The notes below the pieces were generated by a model that saw only the letters and a list, made by a program, of their open reading frames with translations, did no database searches and was not told the DNA's origin. A stretch of 45,484 nucleotides of DNA from an uncultured Lachnospiraceae bacterium. GTDB lineage: Bacteria > Bacillota > Clostridia > Lachnospirales > Lachnospiraceae. The number at the start of each line of letters is the position of its first letter. Position 1 is the stretch's first letter. The stretch is from contig CAZAUP010000001.1 of NCBI GenBank assembly GCA_964488415.1, forward strand, positions 1 to 45,484. Direction: 5' to 3'. This document shows positions 8,478 to 32,947 of the stretch, piece by piece. A program made the translations under genes and the position numbers.

Positions 8478-8512
8478 AACAGAAGATACGGATTCGCGGG
8501 AAGGAAAAAGGT

Positions 8513-11926: not shown

Positions 11927-12025
11927 TTTAACAGACAGGAGAAGAGCATAGGCGGGAGTGTCCGCAAGGGGACGCGGCTTTTCCGTTCTCCTGCATAAGC
12001 AATGTGTTGGAATAGGAGGTCATAT

Positions 12026-16719: not shown

Positions 16720-16750
16720 TTTAATACCCTCCAAATATGTAAAATAAAGT

Positions 16751-16777
16751 GTCGAATCTGCGATATACAAATTCGAC
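16751..16777. promoter_or_regulatory. Inverted repeat GTCGAAT-N13-ATTCGAC at the predicted transcription start of the CBM lipoprotein gene
   Basis: Perfect 7-bp arms at 16751-16757 and 16771-16777, a few nt downstream (minus-strand sense) of the TATAAT box. Confidence 0.35.
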
Positions 16778-16780
16778 CTC

Positions 16781-16809
16781 ATTATATCATTTCAAATGGA
16801 AAAGGTCAA
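16781..16809 (-). promoter_or_regulatory. sigma-A promoter TTGACC-17-TATAAT (minus strand) for the CBM lipoprotein gene
   Basis: The reverse complement of 16804-16809 is TTGACC and of 16781-16786 is TATAAT. The spacer is 17 nt. Confidence 0.6.
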
Positions 16810-17871: not shown

Positions 17872-18009
17872 AATAGGAATCCTCCTTGTGTTATTGTGAA
17901 ATTTGACGAAAAACTTTGCACTGGTGCGACAATAAAAAACAAAAAGCGTCAATAAATCAAAAATTGCTATTTTTACACACCGGAAGGGGCGGGATAAAGT
18001 GCATAAAAA

Positions 18010-18035: not shown

Positions 18036-18064
18036 TTGAAATTATACAAATATCATAATATAAT
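18036..18064 (+). promoter_or_regulatory. Strong sigma-A promoter TTGAAA-17-TATAAT for the nine-gene operon
   Basis: -35 at 18036-18041, 17-nt spacer, consensus -10 at 18059-18064. This leaves an approximately 350-nt leader before ATG 18418. Confidence 0.65.
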
Positions 18065-18417: not shown

Positions 18418-21342
18418 ATGTCAAAAGGAAAGAAAATATTCCTTTCTGTAGCGGCTGTTGTTGCGGTTGCAGTGATTGTACTTATCATTGTATTCGGTAA
18501 CAAGGACACCAGCTTCAGAGAAAAGTATGAAGGGACAAATCTTGAAGTGACTGAAGGGGAGTTCGGACGAAGCGATACCTATGCTTTGTATCTGGATGCC
18601 CATGCAGATGCGGCAAGACCTCAGGCAGAAGAAATTGTAGTGGATTTGACCGCATATAATACGGCAAATGCAAAAAAGACTGAGGTAAAAAACAATTATG
18701 AAGGGGAAGATAAGGTTCTTTATCAGGAGGACAGCGGTTATACCGAGTGGCAGGTAAGTGTGCCGGAAAGCGGTATGTACCGTGTATATATTGAGTATTA
18801 TCCGGTAGAGTCCCGAGGGGTTAGCATGGAGCGCGCTTTCTATATTAATGGAGAGCTTCCGTTTTCGGGTTCCGATGCGTTGACATTCACGAGACGTTGG
18901 GCTGACGGCAGCGAGGTAAAGACCGACAATCAGGGAAATGATCGCCGGCCGACACAGGTGGAGGCACCGGATTGGTGTTCGGCATATTTCATGGACTACA
19001 TGGGATATTTTGCTGATCCGTATGAATATTATTTTGAAGCTGGAACCAGTACCATTGCTTTGGAGAGCGTGAACGAGCCGATGGCAATTCGTAAGCTTGC
19101 ATTGCGCCCTGTAACCGAAGTACAGACTTACGAGGAGTATCGTGCATCCCAGCCGAATGTAACCGGTGGCGTGGATTACATAAAGAAGTTCCAGGGTGAG
19201 AATTCGACGGTTCGTTCCGAGGCATCTCTCTATGCCCGTTCCGACCATTCCTCTCCGAATACGGAGCCATATAGTGTTACCGCGCAGAAGCTGAATTACG
19301 GCGGCGGCAGCAGCTGGAAAATTGCAGGTCAGTGGATTGAATGGGAAATTGAAGTGCCGGAGGACGGTTACTATAACATCAGTCTCAAGGCACGTCAGAA
19401 TGCCAGCCGTGGTGTTGTTTCCAACCGTATCATTTACATTGACGGCGAGGTTCCGTTTGAGGAGATGTCTGTTGTTTCGTTTAAATTCAGCAGCAACTGG
19501 GAAAACGTGGATCTGGCAGATGCGGAAGGCAATCCGTATGAGTTTTATCTGACTGCGGGTAAGCATACGCTTCGTATGGAGGTTACCTTAGGTGAGATGG
19601 GTACCATCTTAAATGACTTACAGGATTCCATGACGCGTTTAAATGAGATGTATCGTACCATTCTTGTATTAACCGGTGCATCTCCGGATAAGTACCGTGA
19701 TTACAAGATTGCAGAGATATATCCGGAGGTTATGGAAGGTCTGGAGTTAGAATACAAGCGTCTGTATGCACTGATTGATGAATCGGTAGAATATTCCGGT
19801 CAGCAGTCCGCATATCTTGCGGCAGTGCAGACCTTGGCAAAACAGATTGAGAAGTTTGTAAAAAATCCGGACAAGATTACAAAGCAGTTCGAAACCTTTA
19901 AGACGAATATCAGTGCACTTGGTACTTCTATTAATTCTCTTGCAGAGGGACCGCTTGACATTGATTACATTACCGTAACCGGTACAAATCAGGAGCCGGA
20001 GGAGGTAAAGAGCTCTATCTGGGCAAAGATTGCACATGAGGTTCGCTATTTCATTGCTTCCTTCACCGTTGACTATAATTCACTTGGTGATGTGTACGCA
20101 GGAGATGACTCGGAGGTAATCAATGTATGGATTCTGACCGGTCGTGACCAGAGCTCTGTGCTCAAGTCTCTTATCGATGAAATGTTTACACCGGAGACCG
20201 GTATTCCGGTTAACGTAAAGCTGGTACAGCAGCAGATGGTATTGAGTGCGACAATCGCAGGAACCGGTCCGGATATTGCGATTTCCATGCCGCAGAATGA
20301 GCCGGTAAACTACGCACTTCGTAATGCGGTAGAGGATTTGACCCAGTTTGAGGGCTGGGAAGAGCTGGTAGCCCAGTACAGCGACAGCTCTACGGCACCG
20401 TACTGGTTCGAGGGCGGCTTGTATGCGATGCCGGAGACACAGATTTTTAATGTAATGTTCTATCGTACCGATATTATGGAAGAGCTTGGCTTGGAGGTTC
20501 CGGAAACATGGGATGATTTAATTGATATGCTTCCGACCATCCAGCAGAACAACCTGGAGGTGGCAATTCCGTCTACGGAGCGTAAGTTTGGTAATATGGC
20601 TTCTCCGGACTTGTCTGCATTCATGGCTCTTTTGTATCAGAATGGAGGTTCCTTATATAATGAAGGAAACACCATGACAACGATTGACAGTGAAGCAGGT
20701 ATTAAGGCATTTGAAACCTACACGAGATTCTATTCTCACTATGGTCTGCCGACCACCTACGACTTTGCAACGCGTTTCCGTTCCGGTCAGATGCCAATTG
20801 GTATTCAGGACTATAACATTTACAACACATTAGCGGTTTCCGCACCGGAAATCAGAGGCTTGTGGGAGTTTGCATTGGTTCCGGGTATTGAGCAGGAGGA
20901 CGGCACGGTAGATCATTCCTGTTCTTCATGGGGCGTATGTACGATGCTGATGAAGAATGAGGAGCATTCGGAAGAGTTCAAGCAGAAGTGCTGGGAGTTC
21001 ATTAAGTGGTGGGCAAATTCCGAAACGCAGACCCGTTACGGTCGTGAGATGGAAGCAGTACTTGGTTCTTCCGCAAGACATACCACTGCAAACACGATTA
21101 CCTTTGATCAGCTTCCGTGGAATTCCAAGGAGATGGCTGTATTGAAGGAACAGTGGAGCTACACCGTAAAGATTCCGGAGGTAGCAGGTGGTTATTACAC
21201 AACCAGACATATTACGAATGCAGCACGTAAGGTTTATAACGACAAGGAAGACCCGCGTGAAACCCTGCGTGACTATGCAAAGACCATAAACGACGAGATC
21301 GAGAAGAAACGCCTTGAATTCGGTCTGCCGGTAGAGGAATAG
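18418..21342 (+). CDS. 974-aa membrane-anchored fusion protein: N-terminal TM helix, two CBM-like beta-sandwich repeats, a helical region, and a C-terminal extracellular solute-binding (CUT1 SBP) domain
   Basis: Start at ATG 18418 (MSKGKKIFLSVAAVVAVAVIVLIIVFG) behind AGGAAAGGAG. Internal repeat WQVSVPESGMYRVYIEYYP..SRGV...FYINGELPF...PYEYYFEAG versus WEIEVPEDGYYNISLKAR..SRGV...IYIDGEVPF...PYEFYLTAG. The C-terminal approximately 420 aa look like an SBP_bac_1-type binding protein. Two permease genes follow. Confidence 0.7.
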   Translation: MSKGKKIFLSVAAVVAVAVIVLIIVFGNKDTSFREKYEGTNLEVTEGEFGRSDTYALYLDAHADAARPQAEEIVVDLTAYNTANAKKTEVKNNYEGEDKVLYQEDSGYTEWQVSVPESGMYRVYIEYYPVESRGVSMERAFYINGELPFSGSDALTFTRRWADGSEVKTDNQGNDRRPTQVEAPDWCSAYFMDYMGYFADPYEYYFEAGTSTIALESVNEPMAIRKLALRPVTEVQTYEEYRASQPNVTGGVDYIKKFQGENSTVRSEASLYARSDHSSPNTEPYSVTAQKLNYGGGSSWKIAGQWIEWEIEVPEDGYYNISLKARQNASRGVVSNRIIYIDGEVPFEEMSVVSFKFSSNWENVDLADAEGNPYEFYLTAGKHTLRMEVTLGEMGTILNDLQDSMTRLNEMYRTILVLTGASPDKYRDYKIAEIYPEVMEGLELEYKRLYALIDESVEYSGQQSAYLAAVQTLAKQIEKFVKNPDKITKQFETFKTNISALGTSINSLAEGPLDIDYITVTGTNQEPEEVKSSIWAKIAHEVRYFIASFTVDYNSLGDVYAGDDSEVINVWILTGRDQSSVLKSLIDEMFTPETGIPVNVKLVQQQMVLSATIAGTGPDIAISMPQNEPVNYALRNAVEDLTQFEGWEELVAQYSDSSTAPYWFEGGLYAMPETQIFNVMFYRTDIMEELGLEVPETWDDLIDMLPTIQQNNLEVAIPSTERKFGNMASPDLSAFMALLYQNGGSLYNEGNTMTTIDSEAGIKAFETYTRFYSHYGLPTTYDFATRFRSGQMPIGIQDYNIYNTLAVSAPEIRGLWEFALVPGIEQEDGTVDHSCSSWGVCTMLMKNEEHSEEFKQKCWEFIKWWANSETQTRYGREMEAVLGSSARHTTANTITFDQLPWNSKEMAVLKEQWSYTVKIPEVAGGYYTTRHITNAARKVYNDKEDPRETLRDYAKTINDEIEKKRLEFGLPVEE

Positions 21343-21355
21343 AAAGGAGGATGAC

Positions 21356-22291
21356 ATGGGCAGTATTTTATCGCTGTATTTCAGCAAAAAGAAAAGAGAT
21401 TTCCGTGTAGCTTGGAAGAAGGCTAAGATGGCGAAGAGTTGTTACTTGTTCGTTCTTCCTTATGCTGTGTTGTTTACTTTGGTTATTGTAGTGCCGATTA
21501 TCATGTCTCTGGTACTCAGCTTCACCTACTATAACGTATTGGAGATACCGAAATTTGTAGGTCTGCAGAACTACATTAACCTTATCCTGGCGGATGATGT
21601 ATTCTTAACCGCAGTAAAGAATACACTTGTTTTGGCAGTTATTATCGGACCGGGCGGTTATATTGCATCGTTCCTGTTCGCATGGCTGATTAACGAGCTG
21701 CCGCGTTATTTAAAGGCGGTTGCGATTGTGTGCTTCTATGCACCGTCTATTTCAGGTCAGGCGTATACGATTTGGCAATTGATTTTCAGTAACGATGCTT
21801 ACGGTTGGGCGAACTCCCTGCTTGCGGAGTTCGGTCAGGAACCAATCCTTTGGCTTTCCAATCCGGATTATATGCTGACCGTTGTAGTTGTTGTTTCCTT
21901 ATGGATGAGCTTGGGTAATGGTTTCCTTGGCTTCGTAGCAGGTTTGCAGGGCGTTGACCGTTCCCAGTACGAGGCAGCCTATGTGGATGGCATTAAGAAC
22001 CGTTGGCAGGAGCTTTGGTATATCACGCTTCCGAGTATGAAGCCGATGCTGCTCTTTGGTGCAATCAACTCCATTACCACCGCATTTGGTGTATCCGATA
22101 TCCCGGAAGCACTTTGCGGTATGCCGAGTACGGACTATGCGGTACACACCATGGTAACGCACCTGAAGGATTATGGTCAGTTACGTTACGAAATGGGTTA
22201 TGCGTCCGCAGTAGCAACCATTCTCTTCCTTATCATGCTTCTTTGTAATAAATTTATTCAGGGTCTGTTAAACAGAGTCGGAACAAACTAA
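21356..22291 (+). CDS. CUT1 sugar ABC transporter permease (MalF/UgpA-like), set A
   Basis: 311 aa, 6 TM. EAA loop EAAYVDGIKNRWQELWYITLPSMKP. Confidence 0.9.
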   Translation: MGSILSLYFSKKKRDFRVAWKKAKMAKSCYLFVLPYAVLFTLVIVVPIIMSLVLSFTYYNVLEIPKFVGLQNYINLILADDVFLTAVKNTLVLAVIIGPGGYIASFLFAWLINELPRYLKAVAIVCFYAPSISGQAYTIWQLIFSNDAYGWANSLLAEFGQEPILWLSNPDYMLTVVVVVSLWMSLGNGFLGFVAGLQGVDRSQYEAAYVDGIKNRWQELWYITLPSMKPMLLFGAINSITTAFGVSDIPEALCGMPSTDYAVHTMVTHLKDYGQLRYEMGYASAVATILFLIMLLCNKFIQGLLNRVGTN

Positions 22292-22348
22292 GAAGCAAAG
22301 AGCAAAGGGTACGTCCAAAAGGGCGAAGTATAGAAAAGGAGAGAAACA

Positions 22349-23209
22349 ATGGCAAAGATAAAAAAGAAAAAGCGTCAAAATCGGTCCCTGGGGGGCGATA
22401 TCGCAGTTTATTTGGTATTGATTTTGTTCGGCGCATTCATGGTAATTCCGCTGATATACGCCGCATGTCTGGCGTTTAAGCCGTTGGACGAGGTGTTGAA
22501 GAATCCGCCGGACATTTTGGTAAAGAACCCGACGTTAGATAACTTCTCTGACCTGTTTATTGTAATGGGTCAGAACTGGGTGCCGTTTACCAGATATCTG
22601 TTTAACACACTGTTCATTACTGCGGCAGGTACGGCAGGACAGCTGCTTGTGGCATCCATGGGTGCGTATGTGCTTGCGAAGTTTGATTTTCCGGGCGGAA
22701 AGAAATTCTTCAAAATGGTTACTACCGCAATCATGTTCAACGGTTACATTACACAGATTCCGTTGTATCTGGTTATGGCAAAGTTTGGCTGGGTGGATAC
22801 CTATATTGCACCGATTATTCCGGCAATTGCTGCTCCGATGGGTCTCTTCCTGATGAAGCAGTTCATGGAGGGTATTCCGGATTCCCTGATTGAAGCTGCA
22901 AAGATTGACGGTGCGAAGGAATGGGGGATTTTTACAAAAATTGTCATGCCGAATGTTAAGCCGGCATGGCTGACCCTCATTATCTTTTCGGTGCAGTCAC
23001 TGTGGAGTAATCAGCAGTCTACCTACATTTACTCTGAGGAGTTAAAGACACTGCCGTATGCGTTGTCTCAGGTGCAGGCCGGCGGTATTGCACGTGCCGG
23101 TGCAGGTGCAGCGGTATCTCTGGTTATGATGATTGTGCCGATTGGCGTATTCATTTTCTCTGAGAGTAACATTCTGGAGACTATGGCAAGCTCCGGTATT
23201 AAAGAATAG
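22349..23209 (+). CDS. CUT1 sugar ABC transporter permease (MalG/UgpE-like), set A
   Basis: 286 aa. EAA loop EAAKIDGAKEWGIFTKIVMPNVKP. Confidence 0.9.
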   Translation: MAKIKKKKRQNRSLGGDIAVYLVLILFGAFMVIPLIYAACLAFKPLDEVLKNPPDILVKNPTLDNFSDLFIVMGQNWVPFTRYLFNTLFITAAGTAGQLLVASMGAYVLAKFDFPGGKKFFKMVTTAIMFNGYITQIPLYLVMAKFGWVDTYIAPIIPAIAAPMGLFLMKQFMEGIPDSLIEAAKIDGAKEWGIFTKIVMPNVKPAWLTLIIFSVQSLWSNQQSTYIYSEELKTLPYALSQVQAGGIARAGAGAAVSLVMMIVPIGVFIFSESNILETMASSGIKE

Positions 23210-23225
23210 CAAGGAGGAGAGACGT

Positions 23226-24758
23226 ATGAAATTAAGAAAGAAAATTGTAGCAGCTCTCCTTGGTGCGGTGACAGTGCTCAGCATTTGTCCGACCGGAGTT
23301 GCACAGGCAACCGAAGTGAACACATATACATACAATTACGATTTCTGGGGAATCGAGTATGAGTCTCCGGATGCATACAAGGCAACCACCTTTGTTACGG
23401 GAGAGAGTCTTGGTACGACGGAGCTTAAAGCACCGCAGGGTATGTATATTCGTGATGACAGGGTGTATATCGCAGATACCGGTAACAGCCGTATTCTTGA
23501 GCTTCAGGTAAACGGAGCAGAGCTTACGCTGGTACGTGAAATCAAGGAGTTTAAGGGAGATGCGGAGGTAACGACCTTTAATTTGCCGCAGGATGTATTT
23601 GTAACGGCAGATGGAGAGCTCTTTATTGCAGATACCGAGAATCAGAGAGTGGTTCATTTGGATAATGACTTAAATCTGATAAAGTTTATTACCCAGCCGG
23701 TGGATGATCCGACGGTAGACGTGACACTTTCCTTCCTTCCGACGAAGGTGGTGGCAGACCGTGCAGGCCGTGCGTTTGTACTGGTAAAGAGTGTTAATAA
23801 GGGCTTTATGGAGTTTGAGGCAAATGGTGAGTTTATCGCATATGTAGGCGCAAATGAGGTAGTGTTCAATATGGCGGATTACATCAAGAAGGTGTTCTCT
23901 ACCAAGGAACAGCGTGCGCAGATGGAGAGCTTTACGCCGACGGAGTACAATAACCTCTATATTGATGGCAATGGTTTCGTTTATTGTACCACATCGGTAT
24001 TCGATGTGGGTGCGTTGAAATCTGACGCGGCAAAGCCGATTCGTAAGCTTAATTCGCTCGGAAAGGATATTTTAATCAAAAATGCAGAGTATCCGCCGAT
24101 TGGTGATTTACAGTGGGATAATGTAGCCGGTATGGACGGACCGTCCCGTCTTGTAGACATTACGGCATTCGAGAATGAAATGTATTTTGCAATTGACCGT
24201 GTCAGAGGCCGTATTTTCGGTTATGACGAGCAGGGAAATCTGCTGTATGCATTCGGCGGCCCGGGCAACAAGCTCGGATACTTCCAGAATCCGGTGGCGA
24301 TTGACCATATGGGAACGGATTTGTTTGTATTAGACTCCACCTCCGGCGGTCTGACCAGATTCCAGTTAACCGAATTCGGACAGTTAATCTACAATGGTCT
24401 GGAGCAGTATGACATCGGTGAGTATGAAAAGTCTGCGGAGTACTGGACTGAGGTTCTGGAGTTAAACGGGAACTACGACCTTGCGTATATCGGTATCGGC
24501 AGAGCACTTCTCGGACAGGGAAAGTACGAAGAAGCGATGCAGTACTTTGAAGTAAAGCGCGATGATGATAATTATTCTCGTGCATGGAAGTATTACCGTA
24601 AGGAGTGGATTGAGGAAAACTTAGGATATGTTATTATTGTCCTTGCAGTCCTTATTTTAGTACCGGGTGTAATTAAGCTGGTGAAGAAAATCAAGAAGGA
24701 GGCGCGAGAAGAGTATGAATTTCAAATTGAATTGGTACGACGTAATAAACAAATCTAA
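23226..24758 (+). CDS. Secreted NHL-repeat beta-propeller protein with TPR-like repeats and a C-terminal TM anchor
   Basis: Start at ATG 23226 (MKLRKKIVAALLGAVTVLSICPTGVAQA signal peptide, AGGAGG RBS). NHL-like blades (VYIADTGNSRILEL, LFIADTENQRVVHL, LFVLDSTSGGLTRF). TPR-like EYEKSAEYWTEVLELNGNYDLAYIGIGRALLGQGKYEEAMQYF. TM helix GYVIIVLAVLILVPGVI followed by a basic tail. Confidence 0.65.
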   Translation: MKLRKKIVAALLGAVTVLSICPTGVAQATEVNTYTYNYDFWGIEYESPDAYKATTFVTGESLGTTELKAPQGMYIRDDRVYIADTGNSRILELQVNGAELTLVREIKEFKGDAEVTTFNLPQDVFVTADGELFIADTENQRVVHLDNDLNLIKFITQPVDDPTVDVTLSFLPTKVVADRAGRAFVLVKSVNKGFMEFEANGEFIAYVGANEVVFNMADYIKKVFSTKEQRAQMESFTPTEYNNLYIDGNGFVYCTTSVFDVGALKSDAAKPIRKLNSLGKDILIKNAEYPPIGDLQWDNVAGMDGPSRLVDITAFENEMYFAIDRVRGRIFGYDEQGNLLYAFGGPGNKLGYFQNPVAIDHMGTDLFVLDSTSGGLTRFQLTEFGQLIYNGLEQYDIGEYEKSAEYWTEVLELNGNYDLAYIGIGRALLGQGKYEEAMQYFEVKRDDDNYSRAWKYYRKEWIEENLGYVIIVLAVLILVPGVIKLVKKIKKEAREEYEFQIELVRRNKQI

Positions 24759-25389
24759 AGGAAGAAAATTCTTAGACTCCCTCCGCTATGCGCTGTATGT
24801 AATTACACATCCGTTCGACGGCTTTTGGGATTTGACGCATGAAAAAAGAGGTACTGTTGCATCTGCACATGTATTAGTATTTTTATTCTTTATGACAAAC
24901 CTTTGGAGTATGCGTTATTCAAACTTTATGTTTAACAATGTGCTTTGGGAAAAGGTTAACATTTGGATGCAGATTGCGGGCAGCATTGCTCCGATAGTAA
25001 TTTACTGCGCGGCGAACTGGTGTCTGACCACGCTGTTTGACGGTAAAGGACGGTTCTCGGATGTATATATCGGAACGGCGTATGCGTTGACTCCGTATAT
25101 TATTCTGACTAATATTGCTACCATTGTCAGCAATTTTGTAACCGTGGAAGAAGGAGCATTCATCACCATTTTCAACGGATTTGCATTAATCTGGTGCGGT
25201 TTCCTGATTCTGGTTTCCGTTATGCAGATTCATGACTATTCTCTTGGAAAGGCTGTGCTTGCGATTATCGCTTCTGTAGCGGGCATGATGATTATCGTAT
25301 TCTTGTTGCTGCTGTTTTTCAGCTTAATCAGTGACGGTATTGCATTCTTTGTATCGATATACAAGGAAATCATGTTCCGCGTGTACTAA
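24715..25389 (+). CDS. Yip1-domain-like 5-TM membrane protein
   Basis: 224 aa. THPFDGFWDL N-terminal motif followed by five hydrophobic helices. The start overlaps the upstream gene by 44 nt. Confidence 0.6.
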   Translation: MNFKLNWYDVINKSKGRKFLDSLRYALYVITHPFDGFWDLTHEKRGTVASAHVLVFLFFMTNLWSMRYSNFMFNNVLWEKVNIWMQIAGSIAPIVIYCAANWCLTTLFDGKGRFSDVYIGTAYALTPYIILTNIATIVSNFVTVEEGAFITIFNGFALIWCGFLILVSVMQIHDYSLGKAVLAIIASVAGMMIIVFLLLLFFSLISDGIAFFVSIYKEIMFRVY

Positions 25390-25408
25390 CCGAAAGGAGG
25401 ATATATAA

Positions 25409-27949
25409 GTGAAACGAATTGGTAAAATGTTAGTATTCCTTCTTTTGGCAGGAAGCCTGTGTGCCTGTGGTGAGGACGAAGTAGAAAAGGAAATTGTGAT
25501 TCGCTCTTACGATGAGGAAGTACACGGTGCAGAGGAATATAAACTGGAGAATGATGATTTGATTTTTGAGCTGGATCCTTCCACCACCTATTTTACGGTA
25601 ACGCAGAAGTCTACCGGCAAGGTATGGCGTTCCAATCCGGAGGATGGTGCAAACGATCCGAATGCGGATGCTGCAGGTAAAAAGTATTTACAGTCAACAC
25701 TTTTAATTGAGTACAATACTGAGAATGGCGTAAATACGATTTTGAACAATTACGAGTTCAGTATTGCCAACGGCATTTACGAGCTGGAGAAGACGGAGGA
25801 TGAAATCCGCGTATTATACACAATCGGTAAGGTTACAAAAACCTTCTATGTGCCGCCGGCAGTTCCGGAATCCCGTATGATGGAGTTCTACGAGAAGATG
25901 GAGCGTTCGCAGCAGAAGAAGATTGATACCTACTATCGCCGCTATGACATTAACAATCTGTTTGCAACTGATGATAAGTCAGAGCTTTTAGAAACTTATC
26001 CGGATCTTGCAAACGAGCGTGTTTATGTAGTCCGCGAGGGTACGAAGGAGTACCTGATGCGTCAGATGGAGGACATTTTCGCATCAGTAGGCTATACGGC
26101 TGATGATTATGCGGAGGATAAGGCTCGTTACAATGTTTCCACGCAGGAGAATAAAGCAATTATTAACCTGACCTTGGTTTATCGTATCGAGGACAATAAG
26201 CTTGTGGTAGAGATTCCGCATGATGAAATCGAGTACAAGTCGGATTATCCGCTGACAAAAATATCCCTGCTTCCGTACTTCGGTGCAGGCAGCATGGAGG
26301 ATGAAGGCTACATTCTTGTTCCGGAAGGCTCCGGCGCAGTTATTAACTTCAACAATGGTAAGTCCGAACAGTCCGCATATTACGCAGATGTATACGGCTG
26401 GGATTATGACCAGAAGCGAGAGGCAATCGTAGACGAAACAAGAGTGGCAATTCCGGTATACGGAATTGCAAACGGGGACAGCTCTTTTGTGGCAATCATG
26501 GAAGAGTACAGTACCATCGCTACGATTCAGGCAGACGTGAGTGGTCGCCGTCACAGCTTCAATTCTGCATATGCCACCTACGAAATTGTTCACGGTGATA
26601 CCATGGATATTTCCGCAAAGTCCGACCGTACCATTATGGCGTTTGAAAAGAATGTTCCGGAGGGCAGTACGGTACAGACCTATACCTTTATTGAGGGCAC
26701 GGATTATGTAGATATGGCTGAGGTATATCGTGAATACTTACAGGAAAAGTATCCGGAGCTTACGAAGGTAGAGGAAACAGAGCTTCCGGTTGCAGTGGAG
26801 TTTATTGGTGCGATTGACCGTATCAAGCAGATTCTTGGTATGCCGATTAAGCGTCCGGAGGTGCTGACCTCGTTTGCAGATGCAAAGACAATTTTAGAGG
26901 ATATGCTGGCAACCGGCTATGAGAACATTTCCGTGCGTTATAGCGGCTGGATGAACGGCGGTGTGACCCACTCCATTCCGAAGGACATTGATTTGACCAG
27001 CGGCATGGGCGGTAAAAAGGCACTGAACGCATTGATGGATTATGCAAACAGCAATGATATCGATATTTATTTAAACGGTCGTGTGCAGTTTGAGTACGAT
27101 AGTGATTTGCTTGACGGCTTTATTCGCTCCAGAGATGCGGCAAAGTACATCAGCCGTGAGATTACGGAGCTGTACGCATACTCCAACATTACATTTGGTG
27201 AGCTGTCCACAGATCGTCAGGAAACGTACCATCTGCTCCGTCCTAGTGTTTGCGTGAAGCTGATGGACAATTTGGCAGAGGCGGCTGAAAAGTATAAGGC
27301 AGGTGTTTCCTTCGAGGAAGTAGGCTATCTTCTCAGTGCAGATTATAATCCGAGAAGAACCGTGACCCGTGAGGAATCTATGAAGATGCAGATGGAGACG
27401 TTGGCTGAAATCAAGGCAAAGGGTACTCCGATTATGCTTTCTGCAGGTAATGAATATGCACTTGCCTATGCAGATATTATTGTAAACGTAGATTTAGAAG
27501 GAAAGGATTATCAGCTTCTTGACTATAAGGTTCCGTTCTATGAAATTGCAGTGCATGGTTTGATTAATTACACCGGCGATGCCATCAACCTTGCAGATGA
27601 TGCGTTGGATATTGTGCTTAAGTCTGCTGAGTCGGGTGCCGGTCTTTCCTTCACATTTATGAGCGAATCGTCGGATATATTGCAGAATACCGAGTACATG
27701 GAGTATTTTGCTGCCGATTATACGCAGTGGAAGGAAAGAGCAGCCGGTTATTATGTCCGTTATAAAGAAGAAATGGCGGGCTTAAACAACCAGTTTATCG
27801 TAGACCATGATGTGCTTGCAGCGGGAGTTACGGCAACTACCTATGAGGACGGTACCGTAGTATACGTAAACTACAATACAACAGCTTACGAGGACGGTGC
27901 TTTATCCGTTCCGGCAAGAGATTATCTGGTAGAAAGGAGCGGGAACTAA
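25409..27949 (+). CDS. 846-aa lipoprotein of unknown function (from memory it resembles the family catalogued as DUF5696; unverified)
   Basis: GTG start behind AAAGGAGGA. Lipobox LLAGSLCAC. No motif I can assign to a known GH/PL/CE family. The stop codon directly abuts the next permease start. Confidence 0.6.
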   Translation: MKRIGKMLVFLLLAGSLCACGEDEVEKEIVIRSYDEEVHGAEEYKLENDDLIFELDPSTTYFTVTQKSTGKVWRSNPEDGANDPNADAAGKKYLQSTLLIEYNTENGVNTILNNYEFSIANGIYELEKTEDEIRVLYTIGKVTKTFYVPPAVPESRMMEFYEKMERSQQKKIDTYYRRYDINNLFATDDKSELLETYPDLANERVYVVREGTKEYLMRQMEDIFASVGYTADDYAEDKARYNVSTQENKAIINLTLVYRIEDNKLVVEIPHDEIEYKSDYPLTKISLLPYFGAGSMEDEGYILVPEGSGAVINFNNGKSEQSAYYADVYGWDYDQKREAIVDETRVAIPVYGIANGDSSFVAIMEEYSTIATIQADVSGRRHSFNSAYATYEIVHGDTMDISAKSDRTIMAFEKNVPEGSTVQTYTFIEGTDYVDMAEVYREYLQEKYPELTKVEETELPVAVEFIGAIDRIKQILGMPIKRPEVLTSFADAKTILEDMLATGYENISVRYSGWMNGGVTHSIPKDIDLTSGMGGKKALNALMDYANSNDIDIYLNGRVQFEYDSDLLDGFIRSRDAAKYISREITELYAYSNITFGELSTDRQETYHLLRPSVCVKLMDNLAEAAEKYKAGVSFEEVGYLLSADYNPRRTVTREESMKMQMETLAEIKAKGTPIMLSAGNEYALAYADIIVNVDLEGKDYQLLDYKVPFYEIAVHGLINYTGDAINLADDALDIVLKSAESGAGLSFTFMSESSDILQNTEYMEYFAADYTQWKERAAGYYVRYKEEMAGLNNQFIVDHDVLAAGVTATTYEDGTVVYVNYNTTAYEDGALSVPARDYLVERSGN

Positions 27950-28876
27950 GTGAAAGCAAGAGCAAAGAAACCTAGAAATTTACGCAGACGCAATGCGATT
28001 GCGGGATATCTTTTCATCAGTCCTTTCATTATCGGATTTGTGGCATTTATGTTAAAGCCGATGTTTGAATCCTTCCGGATGAGCCTTAGCCGTGTTACGG
28101 TAAATGCTTCCGGAAGCGGAGAGCCGTTTGTAATGGATTTTATTACAAACTTTAAGGAATCGAATTACTTTTATGCATTCTTACGAGACCCGGAATTTAA
28201 GAACCTCTTAGTCGAGACGCTAAAGGATATGGCAATTCAGGTTCCATCCATTTTGGTGTTCAGCTTCTTTATAGCGTTGCTGTTAAATCAGAATTTCAAG
28301 GGAAGAGGCTTTGTAAGAGCAGTATTCTTCCTGCCGGTAATTTTGGCATCTGGTATTTTAGTCGGTCTGGAAACCGATAATGTGTTAATGTCGGGTATGA
28401 AGGATGTTATTTCTGAATCGTCCGGCGCTACCATTACCGCTACACTGGAGGAAATTTTGAAAACGTCCGGTGTCGGGGGAAAGATTTTGGACCCGGTATT
28501 TACGATTATTGATTCGGTATATGATATTGCACTTGCTTCCGGTATTCAGATTATTATCTTTATTTCCGGTTTGCAGACGGTGTCGCCGAGCATGTACGAG
28601 GCAGCAAAGATTGAGGGCTGCAGCGCATGGGAAAGCTTCTGGAAGATTACCTTCCCGATGGTAAGCTCCATGATTCTCGTAAATTTGATTTACTCTGTAG
28701 TTGACTTCTTTATGCGAACAGATAATGAAGCCATGGAATTGATTACCGAAAAGATTAACCCGGAAATGAACTACGGTTTGGGTTCCGCAATGGCGTGGAG
28801 CTACTTCGGCATTGTAGTGGTAGTCTTAGGTATTCTTGTAGCGATTATTTCGAAGAAGGTGTACTATTATGAGTAA
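27950..28876 (+). CDS. CUT1 sugar ABC transporter permease (MalF-like), set B
   Basis: GTG start immediately after the upstream TAA (GGAG 10 nt upstream). EAA loop EAAKIEGCSAWESFWKITFPMVSS. Confidence 0.85.
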   Translation: MKARAKKPRNLRRRNAIAGYLFISPFIIGFVAFMLKPMFESFRMSLSRVTVNASGSGEPFVMDFITNFKESNYFYAFLRDPEFKNLLVETLKDMAIQVPSILVFSFFIALLLNQNFKGRGFVRAVFFLPVILASGILVGLETDNVLMSGMKDVISESSGATITATLEEILKTSGVGGKILDPVFTIIDSVYDIALASGIQIIIFISGLQTVSPSMYEAAKIEGCSAWESFWKITFPMVSSMILVNLIYSVVDFFMRTDNEAMELITEKINPEMNYGLGSAMAWSYFGIVVVVLGILVAIISKKVYYYE

Positions 28877-29867
28877 AGCGAAAGTAGTGAAAAGAAAAGA
28901 CTTCTGGGAGCGGAATAAAAAGACACACGGCTATCTTTTAAAGAAGAAAATCGGTGAGTATTCTTTCCGTGTGATTAGGGCATTGCTTCTGTTCGGCTTA
29001 TGCTTTTTGATTCTGCAACCGCTTATTAACAAGTTATCCGTCAGCTTTATGGAGCAGGAGGACTTGTATGATGCAACTGTTATTTCCATTCCGCGTAACT
29101 TTACCCTTGGGAACTACAGGCTGGTAGATTACCTGATTGGTTACTGGGAGTGTATGTGGAATTCCTTATGGGTGTCCTTTGTGGTTGCGGTGCTTCAGGT
29201 GATTGCTTGTACCCTTGTAGGCTACGGCTTTGCAAGATTTAAGTTTCCGTTTAAAAGCTTTTGGTTCGGTTGCGTAATTCTTGTTATTATCGTGCCGCCG
29301 CAGACGATTATGAGCTCCCTGTACTTAAACTTCCGTTATTTTGATGTATTCGGCATTATTAAGCTGATTACGGGACATACGCTGAACCTTCAGTCCTCCA
29401 TGGCACCGTACCTGATGATGTGTGCTACCTGTATGGGTCTGAAGTGCGGTCTGTACATTTATATGCTCCGTCAGTTCTTCCGTGGTATTCCGAAGGAGCT
29501 GGAGGAGGCAGCTTATGTGGATGGCTGCGGTACGCTTGCAACCTTCTTCCGTATCATGCTTCCGGATGCAAAGTCCATGATTACATCCTGCTTCCTGTTT
29601 GCCTTTGTATGGCAGTGGACAGATTCCTTCTATACGAAGATGTTCCTCGGAAACATGGAGGTATTGACCAAGGGTCTGAACTCTATTGCAGGTCGTCTGG
29701 ATAATTATGTGGAGCAGATGGGTATGGGTACACTTGCAAGTGAAGCATTCCTTCAGCAGACCATTTCAACCGGTATTTTAATGGCAATAGCACCGTTGCT
29801 TATCTTATATCTCTTCGCTCAGAAGGGTTTTGTAGAGAGCTTGAGCCAGACCGGTATTAAAATGTAA
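28869..29867 (+). CDS. CUT1 sugar ABC transporter permease (MalG-like), set B
   Basis: The start overlaps the upstream stop (ATGAGTAA). EAA loop EAAYVDGCGTLATFFRIMLPDAKS. Confidence 0.85.
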   Translation: MSKAKVVKRKDFWERNKKTHGYLLKKKIGEYSFRVIRALLLFGLCFLILQPLINKLSVSFMEQEDLYDATVISIPRNFTLGNYRLVDYLIGYWECMWNSLWVSFVVAVLQVIACTLVGYGFARFKFPFKSFWFGCVILVIIVPPQTIMSSLYLNFRYFDVFGIIKLITGHTLNLQSSMAPYLMMCATCMGLKCGLYIYMLRQFFRGIPKELEEAAYVDGCGTLATFFRIMLPDAKSMITSCFLFAFVWQWTDSFYTKMFLGNMEVLTKGLNSIAGRLDNYVEQMGMGTLASEAFLQQTISTGILMAIAPLLILYLFAQKGFVESLSQTGIKM

Positions 29868-29897
29868 CAAGAAATTATTAAATATTGCAGAAAAAAC

Positions 29898-29926
29898 TAG
29901 CAATTTTTAATGAGGTATGTTATAAT
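29898..29926 (+). promoter_or_regulatory. Possible internal promoter with extended -10 (TAGCAA-17-TGtTATAAT) ahead of the second SBP gene
   Basis: TATAAT at 29921-29926 preceded by TGT. Weak -35 at 29898-29903. Confidence 0.4.
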
Positions 29927-30028
29927 ACATCTAGATAGTTGATGCAGAGGCATTCGCTATACAAAGAGGAGTCGACATTTAAGTCGAATGGGACGCCAAA
30001 CCCAAATTAAAAAAGGAGGAATTTTGGT

Positions 30029-31444
30029 ATGAGAATTAAGAAGTATGCTGCAGCGTTTCTTGCTGCAACCACTGTACTTGGCAGCATGGCTGCTTGTGGC
30101 GGTGACAAAGATGTAGCTGCAACTCCGGCACCGACCAAGGGCGCAGATCAGGACAATGACAAGGATAATGATACCGACCCGACCCCGACGGATGAGCCGG
30201 CAAGAGATCTTGGCGGTATGGAAATTATCATCGGTGACCACTGGTCTCCGGAAGAGCCGAACCCGCCGGCAAGTGCTCAGGAAGAGGCTACCTTGGCTTA
30301 CCGTAACGAGATTATGGCTAAGTACAATTTCACCATGAAGCAGGTTGCTGTAGCAGGCTGGGGTGAGATGACCGATACCTGTACGAACTCTATCCTTGCT
30401 GGAGATCCGGCAGCAGAAGTATTCGTACTTGATTCCAGCTTTGTTTCTAAGCCGATGAGCAATGGTTTGTTCTATGACTTAGCTACCTTGGAAGAGTTTG
30501 ATTTCACTGAAGATAAGTGGAATAAGGAAGCAATCAGCCTGATGACCATTGGCGATTCCATCTATGGTATGGTTTCCGGCAGCCGTCCGGAGGCTAGACT
30601 TGGTCTTTTCTGGAACAAGAGACTGTTCGAGGAAGCTGGTCTTGATCCGGATCTTCCGTATGAATTACAGAAGAGCGGCGAGTGGACCTGGTCCAAGTTC
30701 AAGGAAATCTGTGCACAGCTGACCCGTGATACCAATGCAGACGGTGTGGTTGACACCTACGCTATGGGTAACTTTGGTCCGGATATCTGTAAGGCACTTA
30801 TCAACTCCACCGGTACCGAGCTTATTACTGTAGAGAATGGTCAGTTTGTAAACAACTCCGGTTCCCAGAATGTTCTTGATGCATTGAACTTTGCTAAGGA
30901 GCTTGGTGATGCAGGCTATGAGATGCCGCAGCCGGATGGTTCCCAGTGGGATTGGTACAAGGCAGCATTCTCTGATGGTTGGTTCGCAATGCAGTTCAAC
31001 GAGACCTACATGGCTAACCAGACTTGGGCTGACATGGAAGATGACTTTGGTTTTGTATGCTGCCCGAAGCCGGATGGCGCTGATACCTATCACACCATCT
31101 TCAACGAGAATATCGTAATTATTCCGTCTTGCTTTGATGCAGCTACTGCTTCTAACATCGCTTTCGCATATAACCTTTGGACGAATCCGACCCCGGGTTA
31201 TGAAGAGGACGATGACTGGAAGGATACCTATTACACCAGATTCCGTGATGAGAGAGCAGTTGATGAAACTCTTGAAATCTTCTTCTCTGAAGGTGTTGGT
31301 AGCTTCGAGCACTTAGCACTTGTATACGGCGTAAGCTACGGCGATATCTGCTATTCTTATCCGTTTGCTTCCCAGACTCCGGCTGAGAAGATCGAGGAGA
31401 TTAAGAATACTTGGGATTCTGCAATCGCAGAGGCTAATAAGTAA
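30029..31444 (+). CDS. CUT1 extracellular solute-binding lipoprotein, set B
   Basis: Lipobox LGSMAACGG, Asp/Pro/Thr-rich linker, 471 aa with a typical sugar-SBP size. Strong RBS AAGGAGG. Confidence 0.85.
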   Translation: MRIKKYAAAFLAATTVLGSMAACGGDKDVAATPAPTKGADQDNDKDNDTDPTPTDEPARDLGGMEIIIGDHWSPEEPNPPASAQEEATLAYRNEIMAKYNFTMKQVAVAGWGEMTDTCTNSILAGDPAAEVFVLDSSFVSKPMSNGLFYDLATLEEFDFTEDKWNKEAISLMTIGDSIYGMVSGSRPEARLGLFWNKRLFEEAGLDPDLPYELQKSGEWTWSKFKEICAQLTRDTNADGVVDTYAMGNFGPDICKALINSTGTELITVENGQFVNNSGSQNVLDALNFAKELGDAGYEMPQPDGSQWDWYKAAFSDGWFAMQFNETYMANQTWADMEDDFGFVCCPKPDGADTYHTIFNENIVIIPSCFDAATASNIAFAYNLWTNPTPGYEEDDDWKDTYYTRFRDERAVDETLEIFFSEGVGSFEHLALVYGVSYGDICYSYPFASQTPAEKIEEIKNTWDSAIAEANK

Positions 31445-31499: not shown

Positions 31500-31557
31500 A
31501 TGTAAATAAAGGGATGTATAATTGTGGAACGGATGCGGTGTGAAAGGAGAGGTGCGT

Positions 31558-32925
31558 ATGAGAAAGAGTGTATTAGTTGGAGTGTTATCTGTAGCGACAT
31601 TACTTGGATTAGGTGGGTGTGCGAGTACAATTGAAATCGGGCCGGTACCGTCAATTACACCGAAGCCGTCGGTCACGCCGACTCCTTCTCCGATACCGAC
31701 GGAGCTTCCGGATGACCCGAACCGGTTGAATTTTAAAGCGCAATATGAAGAAAACGGTGTGTTAAAGTCGCTGGCAGAGCGTTATGATGGATACTTTACG
31801 ATGGGTGTTGCTGTATCCAGGGATGAAATTGAAGATGAAACAAAACGGGCGTTGATTACACAGCAGTTCGATACGATTACATGCTTGAATGAGCTTACGC
31901 CCGCTTATATATTTGATCAGGAGGCTACCTTGGCGAGCGGAGATAGGGAGAGAGTAGTAATTGACTTCTCCGGTGCCGATGTGATTTTAAAGTATGCAAA
32001 GGAAAACGGAAAAACAGTACGGGGATCTGCGCTGGTGTCTTATAACCGGACACCGGACTGGTTTTTTACACCGGACTTTGAAATTACAGACATGACACTG
32101 GTTAGAGATACAGACGGCGACGGTATCATGGACGAGCCGGATTATCCGCTTGCTTCTGCAGAGGTTATGGAGAAGCGTCTTGAAAATCTGATTAAGGATG
32201 TCATGGAATATTGTAATACCAATTATCCGGGTGTTATTGTTTCCTGGGATCTGGTGGAAGAGGTTATTGCACCGACGGACGGTCATCCGCAGAAGTACCG
32301 CATGGCGACCTCCGATTGGTATCGTACCATGGGAGATGAATATATTTTTAAAGCATTTGAGTTCGGCAGACAGTATGCGGCGGAGGGGCAGAAGCTCTTT
32401 TACAGTGAATATCAGATATATGAGTCGGTGCGGCGTACTCCGACGGTGGATTTAGTAAAGCTTTTAGTTGAGAAAGACCTGATTGACGGTATGGCGATTC
32501 AGGGTCACTGGACATACCAGTCTCCGAATATGATGGATATTGAAGAAGTGTTCAAGCCGTTTGCAAACCTTGGTATTGAAATCCAGGTTTCCGAACTGGA
32601 TATCAATATGGAAAATACCGATTCGGATGATGCGGAACGAACACAGGATGAGATTTTGGCACAGGTAGCAAAGCGTTATAAGAATGTATTTAATTGGTTT
32701 ACCAAAATGGAGAATGAAGGGAAATATGATTTTGCCGGAATTACGATTTATGGTTTGACAGATGACGCTTCCTGGTACAATCAGCCGAAGGAGGGCGTAG
32801 ACGCAGAAGGCAATCCGACGATTACGATTCCGGAGCCGAACTATCCGCTGCTTTTTGACGGAGAGTTAAAGCCGAAGGATGCATTCTTTGGTGCTCTTTT
32901 GGATGAAAGCATTAAGCTATACTAA
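31558..32925 (+). CDS. GH10 endo-1,4-beta-xylanase, lipoprotein (cell-surface)
   Basis: Start at ATG 31558 (MRKSVLVGVLSVATLLGLGGCAS). Ser/Pro/Thr-rich linker. GH10 acid/base block WDLVEEV and nucleophile block QVSELDI. Confidence 0.8.
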   Translation: MRKSVLVGVLSVATLLGLGGCASTIEIGPVPSITPKPSVTPTPSPIPTELPDDPNRLNFKAQYEENGVLKSLAERYDGYFTMGVAVSRDEIEDETKRALITQQFDTITCLNELTPAYIFDQEATLASGDRERVVIDFSGADVILKYAKENGKTVRGSALVSYNRTPDWFFTPDFEITDMTLVRDTDGDGIMDEPDYPLASAEVMEKRLENLIKDVMEYCNTNYPGVIVSWDLVEEVIAPTDGHPQKYRMATSDWYRTMGDEYIFKAFEFGRQYAAEGQKLFYSEYQIYESVRRTPTVDLVKLLVEKDLIDGMAIQGHWTYQSPNMMDIEEVFKPFANLGIEIQVSELDINMENTDSDDAERTQDEILAQVAKRYKNVFNWFTKMENEGKYDFAGITIYGLTDDASWYNQPKEGVDAEGNPTITIPEPNYPLLFDGELKPKDAFFGALLDESIKLY

Positions 32926-32947
32926 ATGGGAAGAACGAGGGAAGGTA

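Follow-up and report, generated by a model that had tools for sequence, protein, structure and literature searches.

A surface-anchored DUF5696 lipoprotein, probable representative of a new glycoside hydrolase-like family within a conserved cassette for surface capture and import in Clostridia

The window studied here (the whole stretch of DNA that was analysed, 45,484 nucleotides from an uncultured Lachnospiraceae bacterium) contains a gene for a large lipoprotein between two ABC importers, surrounded by xylan genes. Is this protein an enzyme, and what would it do at the cell surface? A first-pass annotation made from the sequence had called it an unclassified, carbohydrate-enzyme-like surface lipoprotein, possibly a depolymerase or debranching enzyme of a xylan island. 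The protein, its family and the related loci were analysed with profile searches, structure prediction and alignment to remote homologues. The results indicate that DUF5696, the family to which it belongs, is probably a new glycoside hydrolase-like family that is part of a conserved surface capture and import cassette.

The lipoprotein gene and its family

The 846-aa lipoprotein gene was recovered at exactly the position annotated before, as an open reading frame with a GTG start and a TAA stop codon. The GTG start is supported because homologues share the same initial Met. The features at the 5' end are as follows:

25396..25401, + strand: Shine-Dalgarno sequence GGAGG, 7-8 nt 5' of the GTG start (from the sequence)
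25409..27949, + strand: DUF5696 lipoprotein gene, 846 aa, span including the stop codon (ORF; PF18952, E=1e-192)
25409..25468, + strand: signal peptide and lipobox, residues 1-20, with Cys20 as the predicted lipidated residue (from the sequence)

The N-terminus of the protein is MKRIGKMLVFLLLAGSLCAC, with a basic n-region, a hydrophobic core and a lipobox of the type L-x-[GA]-C. As in a lipoprotein, it reads MKRIGK, hydrophobic core, L-C-A-C20; the hydrophobic segment comprises residues 3-22, and Cys20 was kept in at least 90% of the close homologues. By its signal peptide and lipobox, the protein is predicted to be lipid-anchored at the cell surface. Disorder in the AlphaFold model was confined to residues 17-26, which indicates a short acidic tether and agrees with the earlier remark that a low-complexity linker is lacking.

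A search of Pfam with HMMER, proposed together with the first-pass annotation, assigned the protein to PF18952 (DUF5696), the family that had been named there. The match (642 bits, gathering cutoff 25.6) covered profile positions 2-612 of 612, corresponding to residues 232-839; residues 40-230 lie outside the model, yet are part of the same N-terminal domain. No GH, PL or CE model of Pfam matched any of 40 members of the family even at E<10, and the NCBIfam scan of the protein gave no match, in line with the earlier failure to recognise such a block by eye. A characterised non-carbohydrate family was not found among the matches obtained.

Homologue searches returned 416 to 1326 sequences, all of them PF18952. 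The family comprises 4815 clusters at 50% identity (E<=1e-3), and in the scan of species-representative genomes at least 520 stretches contained relatives, mostly from Lachnospiraceae and other fibre-degrading Clostridia. Members of 900-2431 aa occur; additional domains were looked for in these, and none was recognised. In the literature library searched, no paper mentioning the family was found, nor anything relevant that links Yip1, NHL and xylan.

The nine-gene cassette and its neighbourhood

The lipoprotein gene is the sixth of nine genes that follow each other on the same strand (18418..31444), in the order large solute-binding protein (SBP), two permeases, NHL/TPR protein, Yip1-family protein, DUF5696 lipoprotein, two permeases and SBP. 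Besides the gene itself, the following features were assigned:

16894..17952, - strand: divergent AraC-family regulator, in the same arrangement upstream of many related cassettes
18036..18064, + strand: promoter-like site TTGAAA-17-TATAAT 5' of the cassette, 11/12 consensus matches (a consensus match only)
18418..21342, + strand: gene 1, membrane-anchored SBP of 974 aa (SBP_bac_1, E=7e-22; TM segment; ATG with ribosome-binding site)
21356..23209, + strand: genes 2-3, two ABC permeases (BPD_transp_1)
23226..24758, + strand: gene 4, NHL beta-propeller and TPR protein; signal or TM segment at the N-terminus, TM segment at the C-terminus
24715..25389, + strand: gene 5, Yip1-family membrane protein (PF04893, E=4.6e-12)
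27950..29867, + strand: genes 7-8, two ABC permeases, of which the first is divergent; gene 7 starts directly after the DUF5696 stop codon
30029..31444, + strand: gene 9, solute-binding lipoprotein (SBP_bac_1; lipobox AACG)

The Yip1-family neighbour had already been noticed in the first-pass annotation. In the large SBP, two CBM35/CBM6-like repeats are located N-terminal to the SBP domain, with a weak CBM35 match to 2w47 (E=9e-4).

Related loci were compared with this arrangement. All nine genes were present in the order of the window in 54 of 84 loci, and the remaining 30 agreed with it: 29 are truncated at contig ends, and in one (L011) a gene is split into two hits. No violation of the order was found among the 84 loci. 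The cassette persists at 28-29% identity, also around the family member of 2431 aa, and its carriers among gut and rumen Clostridia number in the hundreds. Far from being coincidental, the placement of DUF5696 between the importers reflects fixed membership in a cassette of nine genes. The fastest-diverging members are DUF5696 (median identity 44.5%) and the second SBP (41.6%), as would be expected for substrate-contacting parts; median identities for permeases 1 and 2 are 64-66%.

The neighbouring enzymes of the window that had been recognised by eye were verified as GH67, GH43, GH10 (two copies), GH3 and GH18. The cassette in this clade adjoins xylan genes of GH10, GH43 and GH3, and 100 open reading frames just downstream of related cassettes included 28 GH10, 14 GH43, 10 GH3 and 6 GDSL esterases. 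Cassettes of distant relatives adjoin GH78 or GH95 instead, so that the xylan island alone does not make DUF5696 a xylan depolymerase or debranching enzyme.

Predicted fold and candidate active site

The structure was predicted with AlphaFold from an alignment of 113 sequences (pLDDT 89.5, pTM 0.85). The model consists of an N-terminal beta-sandwich, a (beta/alpha)8 barrel and a C-terminal beta-sandwich, the layout of GH129-like, GH129, GH101, GH36 and GH31 alpha-glycosidases. The fold search suggested with the first-pass annotation was done with Foldseek. The top matches were DagB (ZGAL_3152; ZgGH129), the 'GH129-like' exo-alpha-1,3-(3,6-anhydro)-D-galactosidase of Zobellia galactanivorans (PDB 5opq, 8rzg-8rzk; E=3e-32, TM 0.72 on target), and NagBb, the GH129 alpha-N-acetylgalactosaminidase of Bifidobacterium bifidum (PDB 5wzn; E=2e-24, TM 0.73 on target). 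GH101 followed at E=1e-17, and GH36 and GH31 at E about 1e-11.

Sequence profiles gave the same two relatives. A HMMER profile of DUF5696 run against PDB sequences matched DagB (5opq, 8rzg-k) at E=1e-11 and, at the start of the barrel, NagBb at E=5e-7. Alignment with hhalign to a DagB-family alignment reached a probability of 99.3% (E=4e-20) over 499 columns, and 635 columns were aligned in a more permissive run. The DagB homologues were taken from marine metagenome contigs; a protein-database search with a DagB fragment gave no match. No PDB glycosidase was retrieved with a profile restricted to the catalytic half of the barrel (residues 600-770). Homology of DUF5696 to retaining alpha-glycosidases is statistically solid, extending over the full length in the case of DagB, and the designation as a carbohydrate-enzyme-like protein outside the known classes is supported. 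The domains were delimited as follows:

25526..26698, + strand: N-terminal beta-sandwich, about residues 40-430 (AlphaFold; HMMER and hhalign to the DagB N-domain; conservation)
25790..26158, + strand: mostly helical insertion of ~120 residues (128-250), opposite a gap in DagB (hhalign), with model helices at 154-240
26705..27778, + strand: (beta/alpha)8 barrel, about residues 433-790 (strands alternate with helices in the model; alignment with the DagB barrel)
27797..27934, + strand: C-terminal beta-sandwich, about residues 797-842 (model; aligns to the Ig-like domain of DagB)

The N-terminal domain carries the motifs P305-[DE]306-G-x-G309, N315-N316, Y329-G330-x-D332 and E365. The insertion holds the conserved D233 and D237, and the C-terminal sandwich bears H800 and the invariant N821. 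The four aromatic and acidic segments singled out earlier as possible parts of a sugar-binding cleft are all present and coincide with the motifs best conserved across the family: ILVPEGSGAVINFNNG (residues 302-317), YGWDYDQ (329-335), VRYSGWMNGGVTHSIP (509-524) and NEYALAYADII (681-691).

Conservation was counted over 75 family representatives at 27-51% identity. D332, D645 and D705 were each kept in 93-95% of these, and D306, D332, E365, D645, D705 and N727 are retained down to 27% identity, in loops matching the DagB active site. Codons of the main positions are:

26402..26404, + strand: D332, Asp in 71/75 representatives, adjoining DagB Asp202 in the alignment
27317..27319, + strand: E637, the position closest after strand 632-635
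27341..27343, + strand: D645, candidate nucleophile, Asp in 70/75 representatives, motif L-x-S-D-[FY]-N
27521..27523, + strand: D705, candidate acid/base, Asp in 70/75 representatives, motif I-x-D-E-x-V-P-F-Y

The family-wide motifs of DUF5696 coincide with the DagB segments bearing active-site residues. Y329 and D332 align with DagB C198 and D201/D202; in the hhalign alignment, D332 is opposite D201, and D202 is opposite the next, variable column. Y607 aligns with W455, N681 is next to E517, and loop 689-705 aligns with E531 and L536, with D705 at the end of this loop. D645 belongs to the loop that follows the counterpart of the D486 strand in the alignment, five residues downstream of the D486 column, and could be a shifted equivalent. 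The barrel of DagB comprises Tyr300-Lys620, and its activity needs Asp486, Glu517 and Glu531 according to mutagenesis (PMC5698469). None of these three acids was matched by a conserved acid in the hhalign alignment: D486 is opposite Y640, E517 opposite S678 (a variable column with D, N, S or E) and E531 opposite V692. With conserved acids of its own, no Pfam GH match and the DagB acids unmatched, DUF5696 is regarded as a separate family.

From their placement, D645 may serve as nucleophile and D705 as acid/base. D645 is replaced by N or A in 5/75 representatives and D705 by S, N or Y in 5/75, a variation that exceeds what is usual for strictly catalytic residues. Position 637 had also been considered as nucleophile. 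It is Asp in 39/40 close homologues, with Glu only in the protein of the window and a 98%-identical relative (P0001), and was dropped since the column is variable family-wide (D 23, T 16, S 15 of 75). E741 was rejected as a catalytic residue because the model has it at the end of the helix preceding beta8, on the face opposite the catalytic one. E741 and H800 are lost together, which suggests a structural pair.

Proposed function, alternatives and relation to known systems

The alpha-glycosidase fold together with the fixed place in the cassette makes DUF5696 a good candidate for a new enzyme family. The explanation preferred here, with slightly better than even confidence, is a surface lipoprotein on a very distant branch of the GH129-like, GH129 and GH101 enzymes which most likely is an active glycosidase in a xylan-serving cassette. 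Catalysis would take place outside the cell, presumably with retention of configuration and possibly as transglycosylation; its target would be a decoration in alpha linkage or the non-reducing end of an oligosaccharide. The pocket would be formed by barrel loops, with D645 after beta4, N681 and Y683 after beta5, D705 after beta6 and N727 after beta7, and would be completed by the N-domain loop Y329-G-x-D332. The membrane-anchored GH10 would cut the xylan polymer, the DUF5696 enzyme would trim or release something from the xylan fragments at the surface, and the two ABC importers would bring the products to cytoplasmic GH67, GH43, GH10 and GH3. Depolymerisation of the beta-1,4-xylan backbone by DUF5696 is unlikely, since the relatives are exo- or endo-acting alpha-glycosidases. 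Of the role suggested in the first-pass annotation, the xylan neighbourhood is confirmed; the island as a sufficient basis and a backbone depolymerase are not supported.

A more far-reaching version is put forward tentatively. It describes a new GH family with a GH129/GH101-like fold and its own pair D645/D705 plus the N-domain Asp, which would be the catalytic module of an undescribed nine-gene surface machine of Clostridia, functionally analogous to Sus-type systems but in Gram-positive bacteria. The CBM-bearing SBP, the NHL/TPR protein and Yip1 might then couple extracellular trimming of plant glycans to the two ABC importers; this part is equally tentative.

A rather unlikely alternative is a pseudo-enzyme, i.e. 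a non-catalytic glycan-binding or scaffold lipoprotein with a glycosidase fold. Its task would be to retain oligosaccharides at the membrane, or to act as organiser of the two ABC importers, the NHL/TPR protein and Yip1, as a Gram-positive counterpart of surface glycan-binding proteins. The lack of conservation of the acids required in DagB at the aligned columns fits such a role, as does the variation of the candidate acids in about 7% of the representatives. The same applies to a nine-gene architecture that stays constant next to varying CAZymes (xylan genes, GH78, GH95), and to the membrane tethering of all cassette partners. However, acidic and polar residues are conserved down to 27% identity in the loops of the DagB active site, binding is already covered in the cassette by two dedicated proteins, of which one carries CBM-like modules, and DUF5696 diverges as fast as the specificity-bearing second SBP.

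Two further assignments were considered less probable. A debranching enzyme of xylan side chains, in line with the first-pass annotation and for example a retaining alpha-glucuronidase, alpha-xylosidase or alpha-galactosidase on glucurono(arabino)xylan, would suit the embedding of the cassette in xylan genes in this clade, the cleavage of alpha-linked pyranosides by all structural relatives and the weak likeness of the large SBP modules to uronic-acid-binding CBM35. It is considered improbable, as GH78 and GH95 stand beside the same cassette in distant clades, a GH67 for glucuronic acid removal is already encoded at the locus and no specificity-defining residue could be identified; it is a narrower version of the preferred explanation that no additional evidence singles out. 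Very improbable is an ordinary CAZy GH129 member overlooked by sequence models. The top structural and profile matches would agree with it, but identity is only 11-18%, the 40 members are without a Pfam GH match and the residues DagB requires are not conserved. In addition, the residues of the NagBb quadruple mutant (H and D of HLDGW) align to R510 and S512, and the helical insertion is an extra element.

If the preferred explanation holds and the protein is active, a missing extracellular step would be added to the use of xylan and plant glycans by Gram-positive bacteria, and a new CAZy family with catalytic residues unlike those of its nearest relatives would be obtained. The invariant cassette provides testable partners for the Yip1 and NHL/TPR membrane proteins, which have no known role in glycan uptake. 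It could also be used as a marker to find glycan-uptake loci in gut Firmicutes, in which they are less easily recognised than in Bacteroidota.

Among known proteins, DagB is the closest. It has the same three-domain architecture, about 500-635 columns can be aligned, and the conserved motifs of DUF5696 fall on its active-site segments, including the 'W-D-D' loop of the N-domain. DagB is also predicted to be surface-anchored (PMC5698469). Identity is only 13-18%, and D486, E517 and E531 are without conserved-acid counterparts in DUF5696. DagB lacks the helical insertion, and the DUF5696 protein is about 150 residues longer. DagB further belongs to marine Bacteroidota and carrageenan, in contrast to Clostridia and plant glycans, and stands outside any ABC-importer cassette.

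NagBb shares the three-domain fold with a (beta/alpha)8 catalytic domain, but differs by an identity of 11% and by the lack of a GH129 Pfam match in DUF5696; its catalytic D435 and E478 fall outside the stretch aligned in the profile search. GH101 (EngBF 2zxq, SpGH101 5a55), GH36 and GH31 have the same layout of N-domain, barrel and C-domain, whereas sequence similarity to DUF5696 is undetectable and TM-scores are 0.3-0.5. GH36 and GH31 are counted among the clan GH-D alpha-glycosidases. D645 and D705 are 60 residues apart and follow the predicted beta4 and beta6, an arrangement that presumably resembles the placement of nucleophile and acid/base in GH27, GH31 and GH36.

At the level of the locus, the nearest counterparts are two-transporter xylan systems of Gram-positive bacteria, such as the one with xynEFG and aguEFG in Geobacillus stearothermophilus and the xylan loci known from Roseburia and Paenibacillus. 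These systems are not known to place DUF5696, NHL/TPR or Yip1 genes in a fixed position between the transporters, nor to have an SBP with fused CBM-like modules. What they share with the locus described here is a GH10 at the surface, oligosaccharide uptake through separate ABC importers, an AraC regulator and, in the cytoplasm, GH67, GH43, GH10 and GH3.

Family, anchoring and fold of the DUF5696 protein

The protein under study is encoded by the following gene.

25409..27949, + strand: DUF5696 lipoprotein gene, GTG start, 846 aa, TAA stop

A GGAGG ribosome-binding site is present in the sequence 7-8 nt 5' of the GTG start, and the start residue is shared with homologues in the alignment. The N-terminus, MKRIGKMLVFLLLAGSLCAC, is a signal peptide closing with an L-x-[GA]-C lipobox, and at least 90% of the close homologues keep Cys20. 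Disorder in the AlphaFold model is limited to residues 17-26, so the mature protein is predicted to sit on a short acidic tether. These features bear out the first-pass annotation, which had described a lipid-anchored protein without a low-complexity linker. Its DUF5696 assignment was likewise right (PF18952, full model, E=1e-192), the Yip1 neighbour gene is real, and the four conserved-looking segments it had quoted were all found in the protein, where they overlap the motifs with the highest conservation in the family. It had recognised no enzyme block; no enzyme family of Pfam or NCBIfam matched the protein, and none was matched even at E<10 across 40 family members. PF18952 spans residues 232-839 only, and its boundary consequently falls inside the first domain.

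The DUF5696 family is large and unstudied. Relatives form 4815 clusters (50% identity) at E<=1e-3, or 2658 with the stricter limit of E<=1e-30, and are encoded in at least 520 stretches of a species-representative genome collection; the hosts of the listed relatives are nearly all Lachnospiraceae and other Clostridia. Neither 'DUF5696' nor 'PF18952' was mentioned in the literature searched. Giant members of 2431 aa (locus L084, 8001-15296) and 1622 aa (protein P0212) contain no extra domains recognised by Pfam; the larger still lies inside the same nine-gene cassette.

A single-sequence PDB search gave weak matches to 5opq and 8rzg-k (E=2.5e-6), which improved to E=1e-10 and 1e-11 with profiles from close and broad DUF5696 alignments. 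The same profiles also picked up the GH129 enzyme NagBb of Bifidobacterium bifidum (E=5e-7). The 5opq and 8rz* entries represent ZgGH129/DagB of Zobellia galactanivorans, an exo-alpha-1,3-(3,6-anhydro)-D-galactosidase in which a beta-sandwich is combined with a TIM barrel and an Ig-like domain (PMC5698469). The DagB family was represented by 14 homologues collected from marine metagenome contigs; its profile-profile alignment with DUF5696 extended over 499 columns (probability 99.3%, E=4e-20), and over 635 columns with more permissive settings. The AlphaFold model, with 113 homologues as input, reached a pLDDT of 89.5 and a pTM of 0.85. Structure prediction and fold search, as the first-pass annotation had proposed, yielded a (beta/alpha)8/TIM-barrel glycosidase fold. 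DagB was the best PDB match (E=3e-32, TM 0.72 on target), followed by NagBb (E=2e-24, TM 0.73), the GH101 enzymes EngBF and SpGH101 (E=1e-17 to 1e-14), and GH36 and GH31 alpha-glycosidases (E about 1e-11). DUF5696 and the retaining alpha-glycosidases are remote homologues.

Domains of the DUF5696 protein, from model and alignment
about residues 40-430: N-terminal beta-sandwich
residues 128-250, within the N-terminal beta-sandwich domain: mostly helical insertion of ~120 residues, absent from DagB
about residues 433-790: barrel
about residues 797-842: C-terminal beta-sandwich

Candidate active site

The catalytic machinery is the weak point of the glycosidase reading. DagB activity depends on D486, E517 and E531 and on D202, which comes from the partner subunit (PMC5698469). 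D486 is mutated in the Michaelis complex 8rzk. In the profile alignment, the columns of D486, E517 and E531 are occupied by Y640, S678 (variable in DUF5696) and V692; the D201 column holds D332, and D202 is offset by one column.

As judged by conservation among 75 representatives (27-51% identity), DUF5696 does have acids of its own in the active-site loops of DagB. Asp was found at position 332 in 71 representatives, and in 70 each at D645 (motif L-x-S-D-[FY]-N), five residues past the D486 column, and at D705 (motif I-x-D-E-x-VPFY), which closes the loop bearing DagB E531 and L536. Conserved N681 and Y683 adjoin the E517 column, and N727, after beta7, is invariant. In the strand order of the model D645 follows beta4 and D705 follows beta6, with a spacing of 60 residues. 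Because this placement resembles that in GH27, GH31 and GH36, D645 is proposed by analogy as candidate nucleophile and D705 as candidate acid/base. D645 is replaced by N or A in 5 of the 75 representatives and D705 by S, N or Y in another 5, and a profile of the D645/D705 half of the barrel alone matched no glycosidase in the PDB. E741 probably has a structural role, since it is lost together with H800.

Residue 637 (27317-27319) is Glu in this protein and in the 98%-identical P0001; 39 of 40 close homologues carry Asp. It directly follows strand 632-635, which aligns with the nucleophile strand of DagB. Family-wide this column is not conserved, and Glu637 was therefore read as a peculiarity of the lineage rather than as loss of function; it could modify or fine-tune activity there.

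Nine-gene cassette and xylan island

The first-pass annotation had placed the gene between two importers. This is true, but it is not a mere location: DUF5696 keeps a fixed place in a nine-gene order found in every related locus (large SBP, permease, permease, NHL/TPR, Yip1, DUF5696, permease, permease, SBP). All nine genes were present in 54 of 84 loci; contig ends truncate the remaining 30, with the exception of L011, in which one gene appears as two separate matches. No violation of the order was found among the 84 loci, and it holds at 28-29% identity and around the 2431-aa member. Neighbouring genes touch or overlap, and the cassette is preceded by a promoter-like site at 18036-18064. No ATPase gene was found in the cassette with Pfam, as is usual for Firmicutes sugar importers sharing an MsmX-type ATPase. 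No earlier description of this conserved cassette was found in the literature searched.

Cassette and flanking genes
8447-10072, + strand: CE15-like esterase, 541 aa; 'fungal' glucuronoyl esterase model PF22244, E=7e-36
12002-14644, + strand: bifunctional aldehyde/alcohol dehydrogenase, AdhE-type, 880 aa; interrupts the xylan gene island
14660-15412: small APH/RIO-like kinase gene; interrupts the xylan gene island
15568-16782, - strand: 404-aa protein with two CBM_4_9 matches, between AraC regulator and kinase-like gene
18418-21342, + strand: large SBP, cassette gene 1, 974 aa; N-terminal TM anchor, two ~200-aa repeats, coiled region, SBP domain
23226-24758, + strand: NHL beta-propeller and TPR protein; N-terminal signal or TM segment, C-terminal TM segment
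27950-28876, + strand: third permease of the cassette, divergent; BPD_transp_1 26.2 bits, just below the 26.4 cutoff
31522-32925, + strand: GH10, first of tandem pair; N-terminal hydrophobic anchor, residues 15-37
32879-33913, + strand: GH10, second of tandem pair; hydrophobic N-terminal segment not found in the same scan

Every non-permease cassette member is predicted to be membrane-tethered and extracytoplasmic, DUF5696 and the second SBP (SBP2) as lipoproteins. These two diverge fastest (median identity to the window proteins 44.5% and 41.6%; permeases 1 and 2 reach 64-66%), which fits substrate-contacting roles. The repeats of the large SBP show weak similarity to CBM35/CBM6 modules (2w47, E=9e-4; 2y8k; 2vzp), suggesting fusion of a binding protein with modules that capture polysaccharide. 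The NHL/TPR protein, kept in every cassette, showed repeat-level similarity only to solved structures. In the distant cassettes L083 and L101 the third-permease homologue has no recorded Pfam match.

The carbohydrate-gene surroundings noted earlier were confirmed: the island comprises GH67, UxuA, the CE15-like esterase, GH43, an AraC regulator, two GH10 and GH3. The esterase gene adjoins GH67 and UxuA in this Clostridial xylan island. No catalytic domain was recognised in the 404-aa CBM_4_9 protein; a similar protein lies upstream of the cassette in L003. The first GH10 is presumably extracellular, and the second is presumed to be cytoplasmic. Since the two ORFs as listed share 47 nt, translation of the second probably begins further downstream.

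Directly downstream of related cassettes, 100 ORFs included 28 GH10, 14 GH43, 10 GH3, 7 with CBM6 and 6 GDSL esterases; AraC regulators are common upstream. In the window clade the cassette is tied to xylan. Distant cassettes (28-29% identity) adjoin a GH78 rhamnosidase and esterases (L099), GH95 (L101) or CBM6/CBM35-rich proteins (L083). These neighbours suggest that one chassis is reused for other plant glycans. The cassette therefore appears to be a general chassis with xylan as a local application.

Proposed function and relation to known families

We consider it somewhat more likely than not that the protein is a surface-anchored, probably retaining, alpha-glycosidase-like enzyme trimming GH10-made fragments for the two importers. 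The membrane-anchored GH10 (31522..32925) would make xylan fragments, from which DUF5696 would trim an alpha-linked substituent or non-reducing-end residue; the products would enter via both importers and be finished by cytoplasmic GH67, GH43, GH10 and GH3. A non-catalytic binding or scaffold protein keeping the glycosidase fold is a less probable but serious alternative: DUF5696 does not keep the DagB acids in the aligned columns, and the family's own conserved acids weigh on the other side. The narrower reading, a debranching enzyme specific for xylan, agrees with the neighbours in the window clade and sits poorly with those of the distant cassettes; it is rather unlikely. An ordinary GH129 member overlooked by sequence models is very improbable.

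DUF5696 is homologous to GH129-like, GH129 and GH101 enzymes and is read as working like them, but it matches none of their family models, does not preserve the acids of DagB at the corresponding positions, shares 11-18% identity and carries an extra insertion. Giving a DUF a glycosidase fold through structure prediction is common; DUF5696 is a worthwhile target for its family size, its divergent predicted catalytic centre and its invariant cassette with Yip1 and NHL/TPR partners. With the alpha-glycosidase-like enzyme as the preferred reading, DUF5696 is best described as an uncharacterised sister family within the GH129/GH101 fold group.
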